Assembly: GCA_964400785.1 (NCBI GenBank)
Contig: CAYNWB010000004.1
Coordinates: 677 to 64,676, forward strand
Length of the DNA stretch: 64,000 bases
Origin: an uncultured Actinomycetes bacterium
Lineage (GTDB): Bacteria > Actinomycetota > Actinomycetes > Jiangellales > Jiangellaceae
Reading direction: 5' to 3'
Below are positions 2,183 to 14,732 of this stretch, one piece after another (within the stretch, counting starts at the first letter, position 1; each line of letters opens with the position of its first letter). The notes under the pieces were generated by a model, which did not search any database, was not told where the DNA came from, and worked only from the letters and a program-made list of their open reading frames with translations. A program made the translations under genes and the position numbers.

Positions 2183-2997
2183 CCTACGGCGTACGTGACG
2201 TCACGGTGCGCTTCGGCGACGTCACCGCGCTGCAGGACGTCACCGTCGCGGCCGAGCCCGGCGCCGTCTGCGCCGTCGTCGGCGGCGACGGCGCCGGCAA
2301 GAGCACGCTGCTGCGCACCGTCGTCGGGCGCGTGACTCCCGTCAGTGGCCGCGCTCTCGCACCCCCACCGCGTCACATCGGGTACCAGCCGTCCACCGGT
2401 GGCTGGTGGGCCGATCTCACGGTCGCGGAGAACGTCGACTTCGTCGGCGGTTCCTACGGGTTGCGCGGCGCGCCGCTGCGACGTCGCGCGGACGACCTGC
2501 TGGGTCGTGCTGGGCTGCTTGATGCCCGTGACCGGCTGGCCCGCAACCTCTCCGGCGGTATGCGCACCAAGCTCGGGTTCTGCCTCGCGATGCTGCACGA
2601 CCCCGCGCTTCTCGTGCTGGACGAGCCCAGCACGGGCGTCGACCCGGTGAGCCGGGTCGAGCTGTGGCGTCTGCTCTCCCAGACCGTGGCGGCCGGGACG
2701 GCTGTGCTGCTCTCGACCAGCTATCTGGACGAGGCCGAGCGCGCGGGAACCGTGCTGGTGCTGGAGCGCGGGCGAGCGCTGCTGGCCGGCACCCCGCGTG
2801 AGGTCATCGCGTCGTCGCCGGGTGTGGTGGTGCGCACGCGTGCGGTGACCCGGCCCGAGTACTCCTGGCGGCACGCGGACGGATTCCGCGAGTGGTGGCC
2901 CGTGGCCGCTCCCGACGGCCAGAGGCCCCTGGAGGTCGATCTCGAGGACGTCGCCATCGTGGCCTCGTTGCGGAGCAGTGCGGGCGTGGTCGCGTGA
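2179..2997 (+). CDS. ABC transporter ATP-binding protein (NBD1, degenerate H-loop)
   Basis: GTG at 2179 overlaps the permease stop (GTGA). Walker A GGDGAGKST, signature LSGGMRTK, Walker B LLVLDEPSTGVD. The H-loop position reads LLSTSYLDEA (Ser in place of His). Confidence 0.85.
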   Translation: MTYGVRDVTVRFGDVTALQDVTVAAEPGAVCAVVGGDGAGKSTLLRTVVGRVTPVSGRALAPPPRHIGYQPSTGGWWADLTVAENVDFVGGSYGLRGAPLRRRADDLLGRAGLLDARDRLARNLSGGMRTKLGFCLAMLHDPALLVLDEPSTGVDPVSRVELWRLLSQTVAAGTAVLLSTSYLDEAERAGTVLVLERGRALLAGTPREVIASSPGVVVRTRAVTRPEYSWRHADGFREWWPVAAPDGQRPLEVDLEDVAIVASLRSSAGVVA

Positions 2998-3854
2998 GCG
3001 CCGCTCCGCTCATCGAAGCGGTCGGTCTGACCCGGCGGTTCGGCCCCGACCTCGCCGTCGACGCCGTCTCGTTCGAGGTCGGCCCGGGCGAGGTGGTCGG
3101 GCTTCTGGGCGCCAACGGTGCGGGCAAGACCACCACCATCCGGATGCTGCTCGGTCTGCTCGCGCCCACGGCAGGCGAGGCCCGCCTGCTCGGTGGACCG
3201 CCGAGTCAGCGCAACCGTGCGGCTCTCGGCTACGTGCCGCAGGGGCTCGGCCTGTACCAAGACCTGACCGCTACCGAGAACATGGTCTTCAGTGCGGCCG
3301 CCTACGGCGTTCGTCCGCAACCCCTGACGGGTGCTCTCGCGCAGGCCGGGGGTCGCCTGGTGCACACCCTGCCGCTCGGGCTGCAGCGCCAGCTCGCATT
3401 CGTGTGTGCGCTGCAGCACTCGCCTCGGGCCCTCGTGCTCGACGAGCCGACGTCGGGCGTGGAGCCGCTGGCTCGAGCCCACCTGTGGGACACCATTCGC
3501 GCCCAGGCGGACGCGGGCGTCGGCGTTCTGGTGACCACGCACTACATGCAGGAGGCCCGCCAGTGCGACCGCCTGCTGCTGATGTCGAGGGGACGCGTCG
3601 TCGGCACCGGCAACGAGGCCGACCTGGTGCGGGGCACGAGGGTCGCCGCGGTCGTAGCGGACGCCTGGCAGAAGGCCTTCGAGGCACTGGACGCGGCCGG
3701 TGTGCCCGTCACGCTGGCCGGCACCACCGTCCGGGTCGTGAACGTGGAGGTGGCCGAGATCGAGGCGGTGCTCGCCGACGCCGGGGTGTCGGCGCGCGTG
3801 GAACCCGTCACCGCGACCATCGACGAGCGCATGGTCGTGCTCGCCCGCGCATGA
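2994..3854 (+). CDS. ABC transporter ATP-binding protein (NBD2, degenerate signature motif)
   Basis: GTG at 2994 overlaps the previous stop (GTGA). Walker A GANGAGKTT, Walker B LVLDEPTSGVE, canonical H-loop VLVTTHYMQEA. The signature position reads LPLGLQRQ instead of LSGGxxQR. Confidence 0.85.
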   Translation: MSAAPLIEAVGLTRRFGPDLAVDAVSFEVGPGEVVGLLGANGAGKTTTIRMLLGLLAPTAGEARLLGGPPSQRNRAALGYVPQGLGLYQDLTATENMVFSAAAYGVRPQPLTGALAQAGGRLVHTLPLGLQRQLAFVCALQHSPRALVLDEPTSGVEPLARAHLWDTIRAQADAGVGVLVTTHYMQEARQCDRLLLMSRGRVVGTGNEADLVRGTRVAAVVADAWQKAFEALDAAGVPVTLAGTTVRVVNVEVAEIEAVLADAGVSARVEPVTATIDERMVVLARA

Positions 3855-4513
3855 CGGGTGGGGGGCGAGGCCGTCGGCCCGGGTCGAGCACGACCCGCGG
3901 CGAGATCCTCAGCGCCGCGCGAGAGCTGTTCGCCCGGCAGGGGTACGAGAACGCCAGCCTTCGTGCCATCGCCCGTCGCGCGGGCGTCGACGTCGCGCTC
4001 ATCGCCCACTTCTTCGGGTCGAAGCAGGGGCTGCTGCGCGAGGTGCTGACGCCCCCCGTCGACCCGTCCCAGCTGATCGGGAACGCGCTGGTCGGTGCTG
4101 AGAGGGACCGGATGGGTGAGGCGTTCGTGCGGGGCGTCGTGTCGGCGTGGGACGCGCCGGCCTACAACGCAGCGCTCACCGGCGGCCTGCGGACCGCCGT
4201 GACGAACGAGCTCGCGATGACCTACCTGCGCGAGATGATGATGACGACAGTGGTGGGGGCGGTCTCGGCGCTCTCGGGTGACGACCGTGCGGGTCGGCGA
4301 GCCGAGCTCGTGGCGGCGCAGATGATCGGTGTGGCCATGGCTCGCTACCTGCTCGAGCTGCCTGAGGTGACGGCGATGACACCGGACGAGCTCGCGCGAG
4401 CAGTGGGGCCGTCGGTGCAGCACCTGCTGACGGCACCGCTGGACTCACCCGACTCAACGGTCCCGATCGACCATGTAGGGAATGAGGTCGGCGACGAACC
4501 GGCGGGAAGGTGA
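3851..4513 (+). CDS. TetR/AcrR family transcriptional regulator
   Basis: ATG 3851 overlaps the preceding stop (ATGA). N-terminal HTH ILSAARELFARQGYENASLRAIARRAGVDVALIAHFFGSKQGL. The last 60 nt overlap the convergent gene at 4454..5488. Confidence 0.85.
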   Translation: MTGGGRGRRPGSSTTRGEILSAARELFARQGYENASLRAIARRAGVDVALIAHFFGSKQGLLREVLTPPVDPSQLIGNALVGAERDRMGEAFVRGVVSAWDAPAYNAALTGGLRTAVTNELAMTYLREMMMTTVVGAVSALSGDDRAGRRAELVAAQMIGVAMARYLLELPEVTAMTPDELARAVGPSVQHLLTAPLDSPDSTVPIDHVGNEVGDEPAGR

Positions 4514-5488
4514 GTCCGGGACACCCGCGAAGGCCTGCTCGAACGCCTCACCGGCCGAGTCGGCGATACCGCGGGCGAACTGGTCGGCGAACGCCACGCT
4601 GCCGTAGTCGTCCATCATGCTGCGGACGTCGGCGATCGCTTGCGTCGTGCGTCGTGGCGGTGGCAGTGCCAAGAACCGCGTCACGCGGTCGCGGTCGGTG
4701 TCGGAGGCAGCGGCGAGCAGATGGATGACCATCAGGGTTCGCTTGCCCTCGCGCAGGTCTCCCAGCGGCTCCTTGCCGTAGCGCTCGTAGGCCGCGGTGA
4801 GGTTGAGCACGTCGTCGCGAATCTGGAACGCGGCGCCGAGAAAGAAGCCGAACCGGAGCAACGGCTCGAGATCGATCGACCGCTTCGCGCCGACCAGGGC
4901 ACCGACCCGCAGCGGCAGGACGGTGGTGTACCAGCAGGTCTTCTTCATGATCAGGTCGAGGTAGTCGTCGGGGGTCAGGTCGGTCCGCCCGTCGCGCTGC
5001 CACCCCAGCTCGAGGGCCTGGCCGTCCACGGTCTGGCCGGCCATGAAGTCGAACTCCGACCACACTCGTGCGGCGAGCCGCCTGCCCAGCCGCCGTTCGT
5101 TGTCGCGCAACGCTCGCAGCCCGACGACGGCCAGCCCGTCGCCGGCGTTGAGGGCCAGGGCACGGCCGTACTGCCGGTGCAGGGTGGGGCCCCCGCGGCG
5201 CAGCTCGCTGTCGTCCTCGAGGTCGTCGTGGACGAGAAAGGCGGTGTGCAGCAGCTCGATGGCAGCCGCCGAGGGCAGCGCGTCGGCCTCCTGCCCTCCG
5301 AACGCGGCACAGGTGGCCAGGCACAGGGCCGGGCGCAGGCCCTTGCCGCCCCGACGCAGGTACTCCGCAGCAGGATCAGTCAGGTAGACGCTGGTGGCGC
5401 TGGCCGCGAGGTAGGACAGGGCCGCCTCGCGGGCCAGTGCCTCGTACGTGTCGAGCTGCGTGGCGAACCCGGGGGTGCCCTCGGTCAT
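4454..5488 (-). CDS. Polyprenyl diphosphate synthase (GGPP-synthase-like trans-isoprenyl diphosphate synthase)
   Basis: First Asp-rich motif FLVHDDLEDDSELRRGGPTLH and second motif FQIRDDVLNL, with the typical KKT/GKR elements. ATG 5488 overlaps the upstream stop (ATGA). Confidence 0.9.
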   Translation of the reverse strand: MTEGTPGFATQLDTYEALAREAALSYLAASATSVYLTDPAAEYLRRGGKGLRPALCLATCAAFGGQEADALPSAAAIELLHTAFLVHDDLEDDSELRRGGPTLHRQYGRALALNAGDGLAVVGLRALRDNERRLGRRLAARVWSEFDFMAGQTVDGQALELGWQRDGRTDLTPDDYLDLIMKKTCWYTTVLPLRVGALVGAKRSIDLEPLLRFGFFLGAAFQIRDDVLNLTAAYERYGKEPLGDLREGKRTLMVIHLLAAASDTDRDRVTRFLALPPPRRTTQAIADVRSMMDDYGSVAFADQFARGIADSAGEAFEQAFAGVPDSPSRRFVADLIPYMVDRDR

Positions 5489-6144
5489 CCGACGGCCTCA
5501 GGTCCGCCCGCCACCTCGACAGCCACCGGCAGCGGCTCGTCGGGCGCTCCCGAGACAAGCAGGAGGCCGTGGTAGAGACCGGCCTTCTGGTCCGCAGGAA
5601 CCCGCACCGACAGGCGCACCTCGACTCGACCGCCGGCGGCCACCTCGTCCACGACCCTCGGCGAGGTGCGCAGAGCCGTGCTGCCCAGCCGTGCCCCGCT
5701 GGCACACACGAGGTCCGTCGCACCCAGCAGCAGGTGCGTCACCGCCTCGGCCCCGGAGTTGTGGACCCACAGTGTCGCCTCGCCGACGCCGCCCGGCGGG
5801 GTCGCAGCGACGGTGACGCAGTCAGGCACCGGCGGGCTCGACGCCAGGCCCTGCCCGAACGCCAGGCCCTGCCCGGCCGCCAGGTTCGCCGCGTGGTCGA
5901 GCACTCGAAGGTAGGACTCGGCCACTGCGGCGCCCGACTGGAGGACGGCCTCGCGGTCGGCCCCGGGGCCGGCTCCCGTGAGGGCATCGACGACAGTGCC
6001 GCCGATGGCCGAGTCCACGATGCCGACGTAGCGGTCGACGACCGCAGCCGCAGAGGCCAGGCCGAAGCGCTGCACCTGCGCTGCCAGCCGGCGAGCCTGG
6101 TCGGCGGCACCGGGCACGAGGCCCGGGTGTGGTGTGCCGCTCAC
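5485..6144 (-). CDS. Hypothetical protein (219 aa): Ala-rich helical N-half, GQGLA x2 linker, predicted beta-rich C-half
   Basis: Open frame wedged between two supported genes, with 4-nt overlaps at both ends (GTGA at 6141-6144, ATGA at 5485-5488). Coding-type codon bias. No family recognised by eye. Confidence 0.65.
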   Translation of the reverse strand: MSGTPHPGLVPGAADQARRLAAQVQRFGLASAAAVVDRYVGIVDSAIGGTVVDALTGAGPGADREAVLQSGAAVAESYLRVLDHAANLAAGQGLAFGQGLASSPPVPDCVTVAATPPGGVGEATLWVHNSGAEAVTHLLLGATDLVCASGARLGSTALRTSPRVVDEVAAGGRVEVRLSVRVPADQKAGLYHGLLLVSGAPDEPLPVAVEVAGGPEAVG

Positions 6145-8249
6145 GCGGCCGGCTCCCGGCCCGCTGGCGTGCCGGTTGTGGCGAGGCGCACGTGTCCGTC
6201 CAGGATCGCCCGAGCAGCCAGCGTGCCGGAGCGTGTGGCGGCCTCCACGCAGCCGGCGTCGAGGCCGCAGGCCGTCCAGTCACCGGCGATCGCGAGGTTG
6301 GAGAACCCGGTGCGACCTGGAGCGAGACGGTGGCGACCCGAGCCGGGCAACGACTGCACGTAGCGATCGGACGGGTCGACGTTCGCCCGCACGTACTGGG
6401 AGGCCAGCCGGTCCGGGCCGCAGCGCCCCTGGTCGTCCCACAGCGCCTGCCATCGAAATCCCGCGGGCCCCGCCACTCCGGGCCACAGCGCGCCGACCTC
6501 GTCGTCGAGAAAGCGCACGAGGGTGTCGTGCACCGAGGCCAGGCACAGGTCGGGATCGGGGTGCGGTCCGGGGTCGGGCATGGCTCCGCACAGGTAGGCA
6601 AGGCTGCGCGGGCGGTGCCCGGCCGGCCAGCCTTCGCGAGGCAGCAGGTGCGGCATGGACGCCCACGTGTCGAAGGTGTTGCCGAAGCCGCTGAGTGTGA
6701 CCTCTGCAGGTCCGTCCCAGCCCATCTCGCGCTCCGGCACCTCGAACCAGAGCTGGGCCGCCTGCGTGGGGACGGTGGCCACCTCGTCCACCATGCGGCG
6801 CCAGGCCGGCTCCGCGCTGACCAGCTGGGATGCCACGTGGGGAACCATGCCGAGCGAGACGGCCAGCACCGCGACGTCGAAGTGCTCCCCGGCAACCAGG
6901 CGCACGGCCCGCGAGCTGTCCGCGCCGCTCCCGCTGCCCGCCCACCAGTGCGACTCCAGCTCGGTACCGGGATCGGCCGCGAGCTGCTCGACGAGCGGGT
7001 GGTCGGGCCAGCAGGGCAGACCGTCCACGCGCACCAGCGGCTCGTAGCGCGTGCGCCCGGGTGCGAGGTCGACCTGCCGGGTCAACCGGATCGCACGCAC
7101 GGACCGGTGCTCGTCCACCTCGATGTCGTCGAGGCGGTGGAAGAACCGCACCTGCACGCCGCGTCGCTCCAGCGCCTGGTAGAGCGGGGCGAAGACGACC
7201 TCCCCCATGCCGGCCTGCATGCGCCAGAAGATCGAGCCCTTGAAGTCGAAGAGCATGCGGGCCGCGAGCTGCAGGCCCAGGCCGGCTGCGAAGCGCGGGC
7301 GCGAGCGGTCTCCTCGCTCATAGGCGAACACCAGGTCGTACATGCCGCAGACGATGGGGGAGTCGAGCGTGTCCGGGCCCGCGCCGTGCCGGGCCAGCCA
7401 CTCGCGGTAGTCGAGGTGGTCGATGCCGTCGAACCCGGCCCCGACCAGCAGTCCGTCCACCACCATTCCCCGCAGGTTGGTCACCACCAGGTCGACCAGG
7501 TGCCACGTGCGGCGAGCGGACGGGTCGGCGAGAACCGCAGCGTGGACACCGTCGCGCCACGCGCTCAGCAGCCTGGCGAACGACTCGACGGCGGGAGCGG
7601 TGAGGCTGGCGTCGGCGGCCATCCGGCAGGCCTGCTCCAGCGCCTCGAGCGTGACGGCCAGCGCCGTCAGCCCGCCGCCGCGAACCAGCCCCGCCACGTC
7701 GGCGCGGTCAGGACGGGGTGTCGGCGACCCGCTCAGGTACACCCGGCCCGGGGCTGCGGACGATCCCAGGGAGCGGTGGAAGTCCGCGAGCAGCCGCAGA
7801 GAGCTCGTGGCGATGTGCGCAGGCGTGAGAGGTCGGTGCTCGGCGCCGGGTTCGCCGGGCAGCGAGTCGGTGGTCGAGAAGCGGGTGACGAAGTGCTGCC
7901 ACGTGGCGCCGTCACGGTCGGCGAGCCCGACGTCGCCCCCAGGCGCGACCGCGTCCTGCCATGTCTGTATCGGACAGGACGGGTCGGTGCTCGGCCGGTC
8001 GAGCTCGGCGTACACCTCGCGCAGCACACGGAACGTCGCGTCGTAGTAGCCGAGCAGGACGTGCAACCCGTGCTCCTCGATGCGGTCGAAGGCACCTCGG
8101 CTGCTCGCTCCCTTGCCCCCGAGCCGCCAGCCGCGCTGGTAGACGGTGATGGAGTCCAGGCGTGACCGCCAGTCCCCGGCGCTCAGATCCCAGGCGGTGA
8201 CGAGCCCGGCCATGCCGCCTCCGAGGATGACGACGCGAGGACCACTCAC
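6141..8249 (-). CDS. FAD/NAD(P)-binding oxidoreductase of the phytoene-desaturase/amine-oxidase superfamily (702 aa)
   Basis: GTG at 8249, one nt after the upstream stop. N-terminus VVILGGGMAGLVTAWDL (GxGxxG), then YQRGWRLGGK and EHGLHVLLGYY. C-terminal FAD motif NLAIAGDWTACGLDAGCVEAATRSGTLAA. The track ORF start at 8822 lies inside the upstream gene and was rejected. Confidence 0.8.
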   Translation of the reverse strand: MSGPRVVILGGGMAGLVTAWDLSAGDWRSRLDSITVYQRGWRLGGKGASSRGAFDRIEEHGLHVLLGYYDATFRVLREVYAELDRPSTDPSCPIQTWQDAVAPGGDVGLADRDGATWQHFVTRFSTTDSLPGEPGAEHRPLTPAHIATSSLRLLADFHRSLGSSAAPGRVYLSGSPTPRPDRADVAGLVRGGGLTALAVTLEALEQACRMAADASLTAPAVESFARLLSAWRDGVHAAVLADPSARRTWHLVDLVVTNLRGMVVDGLLVGAGFDGIDHLDYREWLARHGAGPDTLDSPIVCGMYDLVFAYERGDRSRPRFAAGLGLQLAARMLFDFKGSIFWRMQAGMGEVVFAPLYQALERRGVQVRFFHRLDDIEVDEHRSVRAIRLTRQVDLAPGRTRYEPLVRVDGLPCWPDHPLVEQLAADPGTELESHWWAGSGSGADSSRAVRLVAGEHFDVAVLAVSLGMVPHVASQLVSAEPAWRRMVDEVATVPTQAAQLWFEVPEREMGWDGPAEVTLSGFGNTFDTWASMPHLLPREGWPAGHRPRSLAYLCGAMPDPGPHPDPDLCLASVHDTLVRFLDDEVGALWPGVAGPAGFRWQALWDDQGRCGPDRLASQYVRANVDPSDRYVQSLPGSGRHRLAPGRTGFSNLAIAGDWTACGLDAGCVEAATRSGTLAARAILDGHVRLATTGTPAGREPAA

Positions 8250-8250
8250 G

Positions 8251-11200
8251 TCAGAGCAGCTCGTCGGCGTCGGTCGCCTCAGGAAGGGAGTCTGCCTCGG
8301 CGAGGTCGTCACGGGCGGCTGACAGCACAGCGCGCCAGTCGGAGGGGCGGTGCGGCTCCGGAACCCTGGCCAGCGCGAGCGCGGCCCGCAGCCGTGCCAC
8401 CCGGGCCCCTTGCTCGGTGGCGATCCGGATCGACTCGGTGAGGTCGCCCACGGCCTGAGCAGAGTCGCCCCAACGCTCGAGGGCGAGGGTCGCCCGTAGC
8501 TGCAGCAGCACCGGCAGGTGCACGTACTCGCCGGACTTGTGCACCATCTCGATGGCCTCGTCCACCCGCTCGGCGGCTCTGTCGACCTGCCCCGCCGCGC
8601 GGTACAGCTCCGCGAGGTAGGCGAGGTTGGCGGGAGCGAAGGCCTGCTGGCCGAGCGCGTGCAGGGTGGCCACGTTGGTCTCGAGGAACTCCCGGTCCGG
8701 CTCGTCGTCGGGGGTGGCCGCGGCGTAGTAGGACGACCCCAGGAGCATCCAGTAGGCGTACCCGTGCTCCTGGCCGATGCCGACGACGCGAGCGCCCAGT
8801 GCGCGGGCGCCGGCGTGGTCACCGAGAAACCGACGGATCCAGGCCGCGTACGTCAGGACGAACGCCTCGCTCCACGGACCGCGGGGAAAGCCGATCTGCT
8901 CCGTGCGCGCCACGGCCTGCTGCTCCCAGGCCGTAGCGTGCGTGCGCTCGCCGCGGAGGGTGCTGACGCACGCGAGCGCGATCGCCGAGACTGCGATCGG
9001 GTCGTTCGGCAGGGGCCAGAACGGCGACACCGACTGCTCGGAGGGTCGGGCCGCGAAGCCCTGCATCGCGAGCTCGAGGTAGTGCTGCGAGTCGGTGAGC
9101 CTGCCCTCGTAGAACGACTGCCACCCCGCGCACGACTGCACCTCGGGCTCGAACCAGGCGAACTCGGCCTGGCGCACCATCGCGGTGAGGCGTTCGATCA
9201 GGCCACGCGCGGTCGGCAGCTCGCCGCTGGTGAGCCAGTAGGCCCAGATCGCGATCAGAGACGGCAGCACCTCGGGACGGCTGCCGAGCCGGGTGGCAAG
9301 GGCCTCGGCACGTCGGTGGTCGAGCTGGACGTCGGGCGCGGCGTAGCCCTGCACCGAGCTCACGCTCAGTGCCCGCAGCATGCGGCTGGTCAGCTCGGCG
9401 AGGTCGCGGTCCTGCGACTCGGGGAGGGTCTCCAGCAGCTCGAGCGCGCGAGTGAGCAGCTTCGTCGCCTCGGTGTGTGCGCCTCGGGTCTGCTGTGCCG
9501 TAGCGGCCACCAAGTAGAGCCGGCTCGCCGCCGGCGCGTCACCGGCGAGGTCGAGGTGCTCGGCCACGAGGGCCGGCTCGGCGCCGCGCTCGGAGATGAC
9601 CTCCGCGATCTGGGCGTGTGTCCGGCTGCGCACATCGAGCACCTGGGTCTCGTACGCCGCGTCGCGCATGAGTGCGTGCCGAAACCGGTAGGTGGAGCCG
9701 CCGGGGTCGGCCCGCTCGATGATGCCCGCGTCGGCGAGCACGAGCATCTGGTCGGCGACGGCCGGGTCGTCACCGACGACGGCGGCCAGGGTGGCCGGGT
9801 CGAACGCCGGTCCGAGGGTGGCGGCCACCTGTGCGATCCGCAGGTCGACACCGGGGGACTTCAGCCGCCAGGTGAACAGCTCCTGCAGGCGTACCGGCAT
9901 CGGCTCGGTGCGAGCCTCGTCGAGGTGGGAATGGGTCAGCTCCTCGATGAAGAGCGGGACGCCCTCCGCGCGGTCGATGATGGTGGCCAGAACATCATCG
10001 GACAGGTGCCGGCCGACTGCGAGGTTCTGCAGCAGGTGAAGGGCCGAGGCGTTGTCGAGACGGCGAAGGTGAAGCCCGGTTGCCGCCTCACGCCATGAGA
10101 TCGACGAGTCGTCGCGCGTGGTGGCAACGGTGAGCACGCCGGCCGGTCGGCGCTCGGTCAGACGCCCGAGCAGCCCCACGGTGGACGGGTCGGCCCAGTG
10201 CAGGTCCTCCACGATCAGCAGGTACGGGCTGGTCTCGGCCATGGCCGCCACCCACGCCACCAGCTGGTTGAGCGTCTCGTCCAGAAAGGCGGTCGGGTCG
10301 AGCTCCGGGGCGGGGTGGTCCGCAGTGGCGTCGACGCCGATGAGGGGGGCCAGGAAGGGAACCGACGACGCAGGGTCGAGGCCGAGCGACTCCAGGTTCT
10401 CGACCAGTCGGGCGAGCCTGTCGGTGCCCTCGTCGACGACGTCGAGGGCCCGCTCGATGGTGCGGGCCACGGGCCACAACGAGACGTTGGAGTAGTAGGG
10501 CAGGCATCCCGCGCTGAGAACCCTGCCTCCGCTGCTCTCGACGTGGTCGAGGATCTCGGCCACCAGCCGGGTCTTGCCGATCCCGGCCTCGCCGACGACC
10601 AGGAAGGAGCTGCTCGCGTCGGCCTCGGCGCCGTCACGCACGCGCTGCCAGGCAGCGAACAGGCTGTCACGAGGCTCGTCCCGACCGACCAGGCCGGCCT
10701 GCCGGTAGCGCTCGGCGTCGAACCGCGCCCCGGCATGGCGGGGTCGGTCGACGGCGAACACCTCCACCGGACGGCTGATGCCCTTGAAGTCACGCTCCCC
10801 GAGGGAGTGCAGGTAGAAGTCGGTGTCGACGAGGTTCTGGGTCACGTCGCTGATGACGACCGTGTTCGGCTCGGCAGCCTGCTGGATGCGGGCAGCCAGG
10901 TTGGGCGCCACGCCGACGATCGAGTCGCGCTCGTCGCTGGACCGCTCGTCGCTGAGGTCGGCGACCACGACACGTCCGGTGTGGATGCCGATGCGTACCT
11001 CCGGCGCCACGCCGATGCGGCGCTGCAGGTCAGGACGCGCCGCCTGCATGGCAGCCACCAGGTCGAGCCCGGCCAGCACGGCGCGACGACCGTCGTCCTC
11101 GTGCGGGTCGGGGAAGCCGAACCCGGCCAGGATGCCGTCACCCATGTACTTCATGACGTACCCGCCGTAGCGCTCGACCGCCTCACGCGCCGTGGCCCGG

Positions 11201-11502
11201 TAGAACGAGAAGACGTCGCGCAGCTGCTCGGGCTCGACCTGCTCGGACAGCATCGTCGAGCCGACGATGTCGGAGAACAGCAGCGACATCAGTGCGCGCT
11301 CGCCGCTCGCGCTCTGCTGACGTGCGGCGACGGCGCGCAGCACCTGCTCGGCGCGCACGTTGTCCGAGTCGACCGCACGCACCTCCTCGGCCGTGGCACG
11401 TGCCGTCTCCAGGTCGCCGGCAGCGAGCGAGGCCTCCGCCGCGGTGAGCAGACGGTCGAGCAGCCGGGTGAGCCGCGACTCCGCCGAGGTGCTGCTGGTC
11501 AT
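8251..11502 (-). CDS. Class III adenylate/guanylate cyclase domain fused to a STAND/AAA ATPase and a TPR-like helical region (1083 aa)
   Basis: ATG 11502 overlaps the upstream stop (ATGA). Cyclase core: LFSDIVGSTMLSE, KYMGDGILAGFG, IGIHTGRVVV, GVAPNLAARIQ. Walker A VVGEAGIGKTRLV and Walker B-like LLIVEDLHWAD, then a long helical repeat region. No C-terminal HTH seen. Confidence 0.85.
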   Translation of the reverse strand: MTSSTSAESRLTRLLDRLLTAAEASLAAGDLETARATAEEVRAVDSDNVRAEQVLRAVAARQQSASGERALMSLLFSDIVGSTMLSEQVEPEQLRDVFSFYRATAREAVERYGGYVMKYMGDGILAGFGFPDPHEDDGRRAVLAGLDLVAAMQAARPDLQRRIGVAPEVRIGIHTGRVVVADLSDERSSDERDSIVGVAPNLAARIQQAAEPNTVVISDVTQNLVDTDFYLHSLGERDFKGISRPVEVFAVDRPRHAGARFDAERYRQAGLVGRDEPRDSLFAAWQRVRDGAEADASSSFLVVGEAGIGKTRLVAEILDHVESSGGRVLSAGCLPYYSNVSLWPVARTIERALDVVDEGTDRLARLVENLESLGLDPASSVPFLAPLIGVDATADHPAPELDPTAFLDETLNQLVAWVAAMAETSPYLLIVEDLHWADPSTVGLLGRLTERRPAGVLTVATTRDDSSISWREAATGLHLRRLDNASALHLLQNLAVGRHLSDDVLATIIDRAEGVPLFIEELTHSHLDEARTEPMPVRLQELFTWRLKSPGVDLRIAQVAATLGPAFDPATLAAVVGDDPAVADQMLVLADAGIIERADPGGSTYRFRHALMRDAAYETQVLDVRSRTHAQIAEVISERGAEPALVAEHLDLAGDAPAASRLYLVAATAQQTRGAHTEATKLLTRALELLETLPESQDRDLAELTSRMLRALSVSSVQGYAAPDVQLDHRRAEALATRLGSRPEVLPSLIAIWAYWLTSGELPTARGLIERLTAMVRQAEFAWFEPEVQSCAGWQSFYEGRLTDSQHYLELAMQGFAARPSEQSVSPFWPLPNDPIAVSAIALACVSTLRGERTHATAWEQQAVARTEQIGFPRGPWSEAFVLTYAAWIRRFLGDHAGARALGARVVGIGQEHGYAYWMLLGSSYYAAATPDDEPDREFLETNVATLHALGQQAFAPANLAYLAELYRAAGQVDRAAERVDEAIEMVHKSGEYVHLPVLLQLRATLALERWGDSAQAVGDLTESIRIATEQGARVARLRAALALARVPEPHRPSDWRAVLSAARDDLAEADSLPEATDADELL

Positions 11503-13106
11503 GGTCTCCCGGCCTCGGTGGCGCGGGCGACGTAGAGCTGCACCGGCGTCGGCGACGACCCCTGCGTGGCCTTGAAGTGGCCGACGTAGAGGCCGGGCGC
11601 GACGCTGGTGTCGGTGCACTCCAGCCGCACTCCGTAGGTCTGCTCGTCCACCTGCTGGACGCTGACGATGAGGTCGGACGCCGGGATCGTGGCCCCACCG
11701 GCCTCGATGGACACCAAGGGGCTGACGACCGGCTGGTCGTCGGGAGCAAGCCCGACGACGGGAATCGTCGTCACCTCGGCGGCACCGGCGGTGGCCGCTA
11801 CGTCGCCGGCGCGAGCCTGCCCGGAGGCAGCGCCGGTCATCGCTGTCGCAACGCCCCGCATCGCGCTTCTCGGGCTGCCGGGTGGGGCGAAGCCGGCGTC
11901 GAGGCCGTCCCGCGCGATGTCATCGAGCATCTCCAAGCCGTACGTCCACGCCTTGGCCCAGTCCTTGGCCAGGGCAGACCAGTAGCGGGTGCCGTCGGCC
12001 AGCCAGTCCGAGGTGGAGTACCCGCCGGACGTGGCACGGGAGCTCATGTCGGCCATGAGGTCGAGGTACGTCCGCGCGGAGTCGCCGAAGAAGTCGAACC
12101 ATGCCTGCATGCCCTCGGAGAGCACATCGGTCGTTGAAGGCTGTGCGCCTCCCGGCTGGTGGCTCGGCCCATGGGGCGTGCTCGACGAACCACCCTCGAC
12201 CGCGCCGCGCACCCAGTCGGTCCAGAACGGGCAGACCATGCGGGCCACGTCGTCCCAGACGTCTTCTGTGAAGCCGACGATCTTCAGTGCCTTGACCCGG
12301 CGCACGGAGCCCAGATCGTTGACCGACAGAAAACCTCGGTCGACGTCGAGCTCACCGTCCAGGCTCAGGGCGAGGTCGTAGGTCATGCCGGCGGCGCTGT
12401 CGCCGTCGCGCCAGTAGTCGCAGTGCAGCAGCGTGTTGAGCTCTCTGACCAGCTGAACCTTCTCGTGGAACACGCCGTGCCAGTGCTCGTCGCCCAGCCC
12501 GGAGATGTCGACGGGTTCGTCGGCGCCGACGAGGCTCATGCCCTTGAACAGCATCGGCCCGCGCGCCGGCCAGCTGCGTGGGTCGATCCAGCCCACGACC
12601 TGCTCGAAGGGCGCGTCGGTCTCGAACTCCGAGAAGACCCACGCCGCAGTGAGCTCACCCACCTGCACCGTGCGTGTCTCGCACAGGTCGTGGCCGACGA
12701 ACGCGACATCCCGGTGCGGCAGTGCCTGCCCTGTCGTGGTCGTCTCGAACGGTACGCCCTCGGAGGCCGACCGCTTGAGGTCGGAGAGCAGTTCGTCCGG
12801 GTCGACCTCGCGGGCCCGCGCCACGGACTCGGCGAGCAGGTGGTACTCACCCTTCGTCGAGTCGTAGTGCGGGAAGTCGGCGCGGGCGAGGGCGTGCAGT
12901 ACCCCGATCCGTGCCGAGACCGGGATCTCGCTCTCCGGGGCCTCGGCGACGGCCCGCAGGTCGGCGCCGGGGGAGCTCGGGCGGAAGCCGGGAACGTCCC
13001 CAGGCTCGACGCCTCCGAGGGAGTCCGACAGGGCGTGCAGGCCGACGAGCGCTCGGTGCGGGGCGTCGCTCTCCGGTCCGCGGTACGACGGCGGCGTGTC
13101 GGTCAT
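11499..13106 (-). CDS. Hypothetical protein (535 aa), first gene of the cyclase operon
   Basis: ATG 13106 is preceded by AAGGGG with 6-nt spacing (the track start 13157 has no SD). Long open frame with coding codon bias. The stop overlaps the cyclase start. No family recognised by eye. Confidence 0.65.
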   Translation of the reverse strand: MTDTPPSYRGPESDAPHRALVGLHALSDSLGGVEPGDVPGFRPSSPGADLRAVAEAPESEIPVSARIGVLHALARADFPHYDSTKGEYHLLAESVARAREVDPDELLSDLKRSASEGVPFETTTTGQALPHRDVAFVGHDLCETRTVQVGELTAAWVFSEFETDAPFEQVVGWIDPRSWPARGPMLFKGMSLVGADEPVDISGLGDEHWHGVFHEKVQLVRELNTLLHCDYWRDGDSAAGMTYDLALSLDGELDVDRGFLSVNDLGSVRRVKALKIVGFTEDVWDDVARMVCPFWTDWVRGAVEGGSSSTPHGPSHQPGGAQPSTTDVLSEGMQAWFDFFGDSARTYLDLMADMSSRATSGGYSTSDWLADGTRYWSALAKDWAKAWTYGLEMLDDIARDGLDAGFAPPGSPRSAMRGVATAMTGAASGQARAGDVAATAGAAEVTTIPVVGLAPDDQPVVSPLVSIEAGGATIPASDLIVSVQQVDEQTYGVRLECTDTSVAPGLYVGHFKATQGSSPTPVQLYVARATEAGRP

Positions 13107-13235
13107 GCGGTGCCCCTTGTCTGCGCAGGGTGTGCTGCTGCCCTCGTGGCAGTGCATGAACGCCCTTCGTGGCTGGAGTCTAGGTAGCCGATCGACCCGA
13201 TGTCTGCACTCGGCGCGGGTCGCTGTACCGGGGCG

Positions 13236-14732
13236 TCAGGTGCGGCCGTACCGCTCGGCCAACGCCCGCAGTGCCGCCGCGAGGTCGTCGGACAGCCCGT
13301 CGGGGGGTGCCCGCCACGACCAGTTGCCCACGAAGACCGACGGATCGTTCATGCGGGCTCGGTCGTCGAGCACAAGCAGGTCCTGCAACGGCACCACGGC
13401 CACCTGGGCCCGCGAACCGATGGCTGCCTCGATGAGCGACCACACCACGCGGCCGACGTCCGCACGTGGGTCGACCTGGTAGTAGCGGGCGACCTCGGCG
13501 CGGTGCTGCTCGTCGAGCGAGAGCCACCACCCGGCGAGCGGCTGGTTGTCGTGGGTGCCCGTGTAGGCCAGGCACCGCTGCGGGAAGCGGTGCGGCTGGT
13601 GCGGGTTGTCGGGCGTGCCGTCGAAACCGAACTGCAGGATGCGCATGCCGGGCAGCGCGTTGTCGTCGCGCAGACGCAGCACCTCGTCGTCGAGCGTGCC
13701 CAGGTCCTCGGCGACGAACGGCATCGTCGGGAAGTGCTCCCGCAGGGTGTCGACGAACCTCTGGCCCGGTCCGGGCACCCAGCGGCCACCACGGGCGTCC
13801 GTCGCGTCCCCGGGCACCTGCCAGTACGCCGACAGCGCCCTGAAGTGGTCGATGCGCACGACGTCGGTCAGCTCCAGGCACCTCCGCAGGCGCGCCACCC
13901 ACCACGAGTAGCCGTCGGCGGCCATCACGTCCCACCGGTACAGGGGGTTGCCCCACAGCTGCCCGGACTCGCTGAAGTAGTCCGGCGGCACCCCCGACTG
14001 GACGACGAGGCCGCCGGCCTCGTCCAGGTCGAACTGGTGCTGGTGCATCCACACGTCGGCGGAGTCGTGGCTGACGTAGATGGGTAGGTCACCGAGAACC
14101 GTCAACCCGCGGTCGTGGGCGTAGTCGCGCAGGGCCGTCCACTGGAGGTCGACGAAGAAGAAGATTGCCTCCCACTCCTCGATGCGGTCGGCCAGCTCGG
14201 CGCGCGACGACTGCAGCGCTGCAGCCTCACGCCTGCGCAGCGGCGCGGGCCAGGCGAACCAGGCCTCGTCGTCGCGCGACTCCTTCAACGCGAAGAAGTG
14301 CGCGGTGTCGGCCAGCCACGCCTGCTCGGCGCGGAACCGCTCGAACCGAGCAGTCCACGGATGGTCGCGGTCGAGCAGGGCACGGGCCGCCGCTCGTAGC
14401 GTCGGCAGCTTGCGCTGGCGCAGCGTGCCGAACGGCACGGCGGCATCGGACGCGTCGTCGAGCGAGGGTGGCTCGTCGAGCAGCCCGGCCTCGTGCAGAG
14501 CGCGAAGGTCGACCAACCAGGGGTTGCCGGCGAACGTGGAGTAGCTGAAGTAGGGCGAGTCGTACTGCCCGTTCATGGTCAGGGGAAGGATCTGCCAGAC
14601 CCCGGCCCCGGCGCGGGTCAGCCAGTCGACGAAGGCGTATGCCTGCTCGCCGAGCGTGCCCACCGGCTCGGGCCCGAACAGTGACGACGGGTGCAGCAGC
14701 ACCCCCAGCCGGCGCTGGTCGAACAACTCCAT
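13236..14732 (-). CDS. malQ: 4-alpha-glucanotransferase (amylomaltase)
   Basis: N-terminus RRLGVLLHPSSLFG..GTLGEQAYAFVDWLTRAGAGVWQILPL, plus SPYFSYSTFAGNPWLVDL, DHFRAL and EDLG motifs of GH77. Confidence 0.92.
   Translation of the reverse strand: MELFDQRRLGVLLHPSSLFGPEPVGTLGEQAYAFVDWLTRAGAGVWQILPLTMNGQYDSPYFSYSTFAGNPWLVDLRALHEAGLLDEPPSLDDASDAAVPFGTLRQRKLPTLRAAARALLDRDHPWTARFERFRAEQAWLADTAHFFALKESRDDEAWFAWPAPLRRREAAALQSSRAELADRIEEWEAIFFFVDLQWTALRDYAHDRGLTVLGDLPIYVSHDSADVWMHQHQFDLDEAGGLVVQSGVPPDYFSESGQLWGNPLYRWDVMAADGYSWWVARLRRCLELTDVVRIDHFRALSAYWQVPGDATDARGGRWVPGPGQRFVDTLREHFPTMPFVAEDLGTLDDEVLRLRDDNALPGMRILQFGFDGTPDNPHQPHRFPQRCLAYTGTHDNQPLAGWWLSLDEQHRAEVARYYQVDPRADVGRVVWSLIEAAIGSRAQVAVVPLQDLLVLDDRARMNDPSVFVGNWSWRAPPDGLSDDLAAALRALAERYGRT

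Follow-up and report, generated by a model that had tools for sequence, protein, structure and literature searches.

Immunoglobulin (Ig)-like beta-sandwiches of the NEW3/NPCBM_assoc (PF10633) and GH123 N-terminal (PF22680) types are known from secreted glycosidases and giant surface-type repeat proteins, and the ASH, PapD-like and MSP Ig-like domains of CEP192, HYDIN, CFAP65 and the pilus chaperones are protein-protein docking modules. The non-catalytic small subunits of heteromeric prenyl diphosphate synthases, such as heptaprenyl diphosphate synthase component I, are all-alpha. Here we analysed P219 and P535, two hypothetical proteins encoded in a five-gene operon of a 64,000-nucleotide stretch (hereafter, the window; G+C about 72%) of contig CAYNWB010000004.1, from an uncultured Actinomycetes bacterium. 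An earlier note, made from the sequence alone, had proposed that both proteins share a helical segment followed by a beta-rich C-terminal module. Our results showed that the two beta modules are homologous, that the module of P219 belongs to a known type of domain, placed here in an apparently cytoplasmic setting linked to isoprenoids that is unusual for it, and that P219-like proteins occur naturally fused to the polyprenyl diphosphate synthase of the operon. The homology statistics, the assignment to the NEW3 family and the synthase fusions are the additions of the present analysis.

The C-termini compared by the earlier note had been quoted correctly for both P219 (219 aa, open reading frame (ORF) 5485-6144, minus strand) and P535 (ORF 11499-13157, minus strand), and the common order of motifs that it had recognised by eye holds in both family consensuses (L-V-S..G, VRL, PG-x-Y-x-G, P-[VI]-x-L). 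Its last motif, P-x-PV, is specific to the P219 of the window; the family-wide consensus is P-[IV]-x-L. A pairwise BLASTP of these two proteins (E 0.022) and a profile comparison with hhalign based on a 5-sequence P219 alignment (probability 2.4%) were too weak to decide, and the signal rose with alignment depth. With 27 P219 orthologues extracted from operon loci and 29 P535 sequences, full-length hhalign gave E 5.5e-4 and a probability of 30%, and the C-terminal sub-alignments produced a match of the modules (score 31.5, P 9.8e-5, probability 58%) over 70 columns, pairing residues 139-214 of P219 with 475-546 of P535. Shuffling the columns of the P535 module 300 times yielded a mean score of 11.3 (standard deviation 2.35) and a maximum of 21.7, so that the real score stands at z ~8.6. 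The other domain pairings scored at most 18.6 over no more than 20 columns, and so did ~2,600 decoy columns taken from the families of the cyclase, the flavoenzyme, the synthase and the P535 N-terminus, which match the test set in organisms and composition.

Searches with hidden Markov models (HMMs) of the single modules were in agreement in both directions. The P219-module HMM scored 18-20 bits against some P535 relatives (maximum 20.2), compared with 8.4 for the best of 9,111 decoy ORFs of the same genome, and its best match fell within the C-terminal 130 aa, in the same register, in 115 of 117 P535 proteins. Reciprocally, the P535-module HMM detected P219-like proteins at 19.8, 19.3 and 15.7 bits, over a decoy maximum of 12.7. 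In addition, AlphaFold2 (AF2) models of P219 and P535, built from separate alignments, present a common order of elements (EEE, EE-HHH-EEEE, E, E, E), and the DSSP state is equal at 63 of the 70 aligned positions (90%); a shift of the register by at least two residues lowers this agreement to 27-61%. In conclusion, the beta modules of P219 and P535 are homologous, and composition does not explain their match.

The fold class of the P219 module is clear. Residues 110-211 were modelled with a predicted local distance difference test score (pLDDT) of 93-97 as 8-9 strands, and Foldseek matched them to GH123 N-terminal sandwiches, ASH/PapD-like domains and pilus chaperones, with E from 5e-8 to 5e-4. 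Weak Pfam matches (E <1) to NPCBM_assoc/NEW3 were present in 16 of the 27 family members and to GH123_N_2 in 10 of them; the P219 of the window scored 20.3 bits against PF10633 (E 6e-4), under the gathering score of 24.4 and over residues 160-191 only. A profile search of 1.84 billion representative proteins retrieved 1,586 proteins at E <=1e-3, a count that speaks against P219 being an orphan, and among them giant proteins in which the module, called NPCBM_assoc by Pfam, is repeated 4 to 18 times in tandem, such as P0131 (2,900 aa, 18 copies) and P0132 (1,986 aa, 15 copies). When 77 tandem NEW3 repeats drawn from giant proteins that pass PF10633 (e.g., P0132, 115 bits) were aligned with the P219 module by hhalign, the match reached a probability of 99% (E 5e-18) over 101 columns, including the signature '...VP.dQp.G.Y.G.v...'. 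The P219 module is, then, a canonical NEW3/NPCBM_assoc-type Ig-like sandwich, as the guess of an "Ig-like or CARDB-type" sandwich had anticipated for this protein, and the GLYxG motif characterises NEW3-type domains in general and is not private to P219 and P535; it looks like the tyrosine-corner motif of Greek-key sandwiches. The closest relatives of the P219 module outside the operon are the NEW3-type Ig repeats, up to 18 in tandem, of which giant proteins of 1,400-3,500 aa (P0131, P0132, P0140, P0147 and P0196) are composed.

The P535 copy is a divergent, probable member of this domain type. It is ~18-20 residues shorter: after its first strand the chain passes directly to the LVS strand, and the B-C hairpin, with the WxHN that is invariant in P219, is missing; thus, the complete NEW3 strand complement, including the B strand (x-h-x-N-x-G), is not found in it. 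Searches of Pfam and NCBIfam with the P535 family returned nothing meaningful, the Ig-like copy remaining without a Pfam match, and sequence-profile searches of the PDB gave nothing significant. Against the NEW3 repeats, the P535 module scored 26.6 in hhalign (P 4e-4, 61 columns, probability 35%). A common domain family is therefore what remains of the "two paralogous modules within one operon" of the earlier note, as a duplication inside the operon does not follow from scores so close to each other (26.6 versus 31.5).

Both modules are preceded by two long predicted helices, of mediocre model confidence in either protein (pLDDT 55-71, AF2), and to this extent a shared helical segment does exist; however, no sequence homology was detected between the hairpins. 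Local, global and relaxed-gap hhalign runs scored 9-14.5 in mutually inconsistent registers, the best of them with P 0.05 over 12 columns, and the P219-hairpin HMM reached at best 12.2 bits against P535, not convincingly separated from the decoy maximum of 9.9. A weak positional preference was noted, 74 of 103 best matches of this HMM lying on the P535 hairpin, with the few best being co-linear. These comparisons were accordingly rejected as evidence of homology, and what the two helical segments have in common is limited to their architecture. The helices of P535 span residues 343-376 and 382-420, the second of them Trp-rich and highly conserved (DWxxDGxRYWSQLAKDWAxAW), whereas the helices of P219 contain no Trp. 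Helix 1 of P219 carries the most conserved motif of its family, VQRFGxxSAAxVxxRY, made of invariant columns, with a pairwise identity of 63% in its core.

Between the hairpin and the sandwich, the P219 linker includes the exact 15-nt direct repeat (5843-5857 and 5861-5875) that the earlier note had pointed out, which turned out to be the core of an 18-nt tandem duplication whose copies (5841-5858 and 5859-5876) are identical at 17 of 18 positions. The linker is predicted to be disordered (pLDDT <50 at residues 95-100, AF2). The repeat has no family-level meaning because the six duplicated residues are missing from the closest P219 homologues, P0007-P0009 (80-96% identity), and we read it as a recent, lineage-specific slippage event.

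Some relatives of P219 are natural fusions. In protein P0227 (508 aa), listed by the large profile search, the first 213 residues are P219-like and the remainder is a polyprenyl synthase. A targeted search identified two further fusions, P0280 (592 aa) and P0281 (507 aa), with 51-58% identity, whose genes lie downstream of the flavoenzyme gene at loci L037 (directly, with an overlapping start) and L038 (at ~250 nt). A metagenome scan added contigs up to a total of six from different sources (L037-L042), 51-88% identical. In all of them a single unbroken ORF, following the flavoenzyme gene, encodes hairpin, sandwich and synthase; in L043-L048, which come next in relatedness, a stop codon ends the ORF behind the sandwich, and the proteins are unfused. 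The fusion is of the Rosetta-stone kind and has persisted while the sequences diverged; a sequencing error does not account for it. Judged from sequence, the fusions link P219 functionally, and probably also physically, to the synthase encoded downstream.

Neither P219 nor P535 is the orphan that it had been taken for. At least 237 relatives of P535 exist among 90%-identity clusters, with 45-66% identity and not one of them annotated, and a scan of species-representative genomes located 35 loci in Acidimicrobiia, Intrasporangiaceae, Ornithinimicrobium, Blastococcus, Pedococcus and others, with the five genes in unchanged order at every sufficiently long locus (~27). The genes of the window are joined by ATGA, GTGA and ATGA junctions, the GTG start of P219 overlapping the stop of the flavoenzyme gene (GTGA) and its stop overlapping the start of the synthase gene (ATGA). 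The operon is translationally coupled, and P219 and P535 strictly co-occur in it. P219 is its fastest-evolving member, with 29-41% identity to the window copy compared with 45% to 77% for the other four; therefore, a word-based search had returned only five relatives. A keyword search of the literature found no description of the operon, P219 or P535.

Upstream of its tail, P535 contains a START/Bet v 1 (SRPBCC)-fold domain. Both AF2 and Foldseek indicated that residues 160-320 adopt a helix-grip fold, with a long C-terminal helix over an antiparallel sheet, and the Foldseek matches were TTHA0849, MSMEG_0129, the TcmN/ZhuI cyclases, norcoclaurine synthase and plant hormone receptors (E 1e-4 to 1e-3; target template modelling (TM) scores of 0.54-0.72). 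This is the most conserved region of the protein, with a mean pairwise identity of 68% versus 48% for the tail. Within it, residues 225-249 include the invariant positions H225-W-H227, E232 and H245-C246-D247-x-W249; on sequence grounds, this His/Cys/Asp/Glu cluster might bind a metal or act in catalysis, and P535 might then be an enzyme and not just carry a ligand.

How P219 and P535 might work together can be proposed from these data. P219 and the last ~210 residues of P535 share a build of two long helices, a flexible linker and an Ig-like sandwich, of the NEW3/NPCBM_assoc kind in P219 and probably also in P535; both proteins lack signal peptides, and these parts lack recognisable catalytic motifs. 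We propose that the hairpin and Ig parts have no catalytic role and serve for docking or assembly in a cytoplasmic complex that handles isoprenoids. In it, P219 would be an accessory subunit to the polyprenyl diphosphate synthase encoded downstream, and the P535 tail would tether the START-fold, presumed lipid-binding domain to that assembly: it would bind either the same partner or P219 itself, hairpin against hairpin. To this explanation as a whole we assign a probability of about 0.55. A further step, which we consider improbable, would be a direct transfer of lipid: in a complex assembled through hairpins and Ig modules, P535 would receive in its START pocket the product made by the synthase together with the flavoenzyme and, once loaded, would switch the cyclase-STAND ATPase. 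If true, it would be a previously undescribed isoprenoid-sensing cyclic-nucleotide signalling device on an Ig scaffold otherwise known from extracellular proteins.

Several results weigh against the docking proposal. The similarity of P219 to P535 is weak, with the full-length probability of only 30%, and the hairpins align with low scores in inconsistent registers. Either module HMM, searched against 20,125 ORFs of at least 70 aa from the same genome, finds only its source protein; the genome contains no extra paralogues, and no direct cross-hit exists. The fusions bear on the linkage of P219 and the synthase and say nothing direct on the P535 tail. Moreover, generic NEW3 repeats match the P535 module almost as well as P219 does, so that neither a specific duplication nor a shared partner is required.

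This last point leads to the alternative that survives best, in which a generic NEW3-type Ig domain was gained separately by the two proteins for different jobs, with no common partner and no duplication inside the operon; for example, P219 would serve the synthase, and the P535 tail would self-oligomerise or cap the START pocket. The similar scores of the P535 module against unrelated NEW3 repeats (P 4e-4) and against P219 (P 1e-4) agree with such separate gains, as do the hairpins without detectable homology and the different invariant residues, WxHN and VQRFG..SAA in P219, a Trp-rich helix 2 and LVSIE in P535. Against separate gains it counts that both proteins have the unusual order of two long helices, linker and sandwich, that they are always encoded together in one operon, and that the weak hairpin matches are co-linear, most of the best P219-hairpin HMM matches (74 of 103) lying on the hairpin of P535. 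We consider this alternative rather unlikely.

In another arrangement, P219 and P535 would form a heterodimer, their hairpins packing into a four-helix bundle (START-Ig/Ig), and the synthase fusion would reflect only the operon neighbourhood. The strict co-occurrence of both proteins would fit such a dimer, as would the low pLDDT of the hairpins (55-71) beside confident domains in the monomer models, as expected for helices that require a partner, and the conservation of the tails, which peaks in helix 1 of P219 and in helix 2 of P535; nonetheless, in all natural fusions found the partner of P219 is the synthase and in none is it P535, and we consider this arrangement very doubtful. Finally, the resemblance might have arisen by chance or from the composition of two Ala/Val/Gly-rich proteins encoded in a genome of high GC. 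The BLASTP E of 0.022, the shallow-alignment probability of 2.4% and the own-genome HMM search without a cross-hit could still be attributed to this, but it is largely refuted by the column-shuffle z of ~8.6, by the decoys of the same composition, operon and genome that never came near the score, by the growth of the signal with alignment depth, by the reciprocal HMM hits through intermediate sequences and by a predicted secondary structure that agrees at 90% only in the aligned register.

These results have practical consequences. Two hypothetical proteins become annotatable, P219 as a hairpin plus a NEW3-type Ig domain and P535 as a helical domain, a START domain, a hairpin and a truncated Ig domain, in an operon that is widespread in Actinomycetota. 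The fusions name a concrete partner, which makes the role of P219 testable, and should P219 prove to regulate or scaffold the synthase, enzymes of this class would have an accessory subunit of a new kind, through which the product of the operon could be approached.

The coordinates of the operon and of the parts of both proteins are collected in Table 1.

Table 1. The five-gene operon of the window and the recognised parts of P219 and P535 (residues of P535 parts in 552-aa numbering)
Feature	Coordinates	Strand	Remarks
Operon: P535, cyclase-STAND, flavoenzyme, P219, polyprenyl synthase		-	Five genes chained by stop/start overlaps
P535 gene	11499..13106	-	535 aa; stop overlaps cyclase start (ATGA)
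Class III nucleotide cyclase - AAA_16/STAND - TPR protein	8251..11502	-	Operon context
Flavin (FAD) amine-oxidase/phytoene-desaturase-like oxidoreductase (flavoenzyme)	6141..8249	-	Operon context
P219 gene	5485..6144	-	219 aa; orthologues at equivalent operon position in ~27 loci
Polyprenyl diphosphate synthase	4454..5488	-	Pfam E 1e-55; putative P219 partner, fused to a P219-like protein in a sister clade
P535 START/Bet v 1 (SRPBCC)-fold domain, residues 160-320	12198..12680	-	AF2, pLDDT >90
P535 two-helix hairpin, residues 343-420	11898..12131	-	AF2, pLDDT 62-71
P535 divergent Ig-like beta module, residues 461-548	11514..11777	-	Homologous to the P219 module
P219 helix 1, residues 13-57	5974..6108	-	AF2, pLDDT 55-70
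P219 helix 2, residues 64-93	5866..5955	-	AF2
18-nt tandem duplication encoding GQGLA twice	5841..5876	-	P219 linker
P219 NEW3-type Ig-like beta-sandwich, residues 110-211	5512..5817	-	AF2, Foldseek, weak Pfam, hhalign

The start of P535 was placed by the family alignment at M18 (13106) of its ORF. The longest ORFs of the flavoenzyme (6141-8822, minus strand) and the cyclase (8251-11619, minus strand) extend spuriously at the N-terminus into the upstream genes; the real starts lie at ~8249 and 11502, respectively, as judged by the alignments of the families and by the ATGA/GTGA junctions. The operon is flanked upstream, on the same strand, by a 4-alpha-glucanotransferase gene (13236-14732) and downstream by a convergent TetR-family gene (2978-4513, plus strand) beside an ABC-2 exporter. 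A classification of the synthase as a family-2 encapsulin cargo prenyl transferase was rejected, as it scored 171 bits in NCBIfam against a cut-off of 450.

Two of the other loci showed peculiarities of their own. On contig CAWERJ010000012.1 of a metagenome-assembled genome (L036, 5652-13807), the operon looks decayed or mis-assembled, the P219 homologue shifting frame after ~60 residues and the matches to P535, cyclase and flavoenzyme being fragmentary. At the locus of the P219 relative P0010 (L001, 1-2077, minus strand), a second cyclase gene with an HTH_77 domain is found just upstream of the operon on the opposite strand; unlike it, the cyclase-STAND protein of the window has no DNA-binding domain.

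Compared with known systems, P219 resembles the small subunits of heteromeric prenyl diphosphate synthases in being a small, presumably non-catalytic protein encoded beside a trans-prenyl synthase. However, instead of being all-alpha it is composed of a hairpin and an Ig-like sandwich, and it has no Pfam or NCBIfam match to these subunits, so the likeness is a functional analogy only. P535 shares the helix-grip fold with the SRPBCC/START/Bet v 1 superfamily, from which it differs in lacking a family match at the sequence level and in placing this domain between an N-terminal helical domain and a tail of hairpin and Ig module, an arrangement found in no annotated family. With the ASH, PapD-like and MSP domains, P219 has fold-level matches (E 3e-7 to 5e-4), and the docking role of these domains is the one proposed here for the tails of P219 and P535; the link in sequence is limited to weak Ig_CFAP65_7th matches in 4 of the 27 P219 family members, and P219 presents no evidence of a donor-strand chaperone function. 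With the NEW3/NPCBM_assoc and GH123 N-terminal domains, P219 shares the same Ig-like sandwich, the B-strand 'x-h-x-N-x-(G/T)' and F-strand 'P.dQp.G.Y.G.h.h' signature of NEW3 and a Foldseek match to GH123 enzymes at E 5e-8. Unlike its relatives in secreted glycosidases and giant repeat proteins, the domain is used here once per protein, behind a helical hairpin, and the proteins are small, apparently cytoplasmic and encoded in an isoprenoid/cyclase operon.

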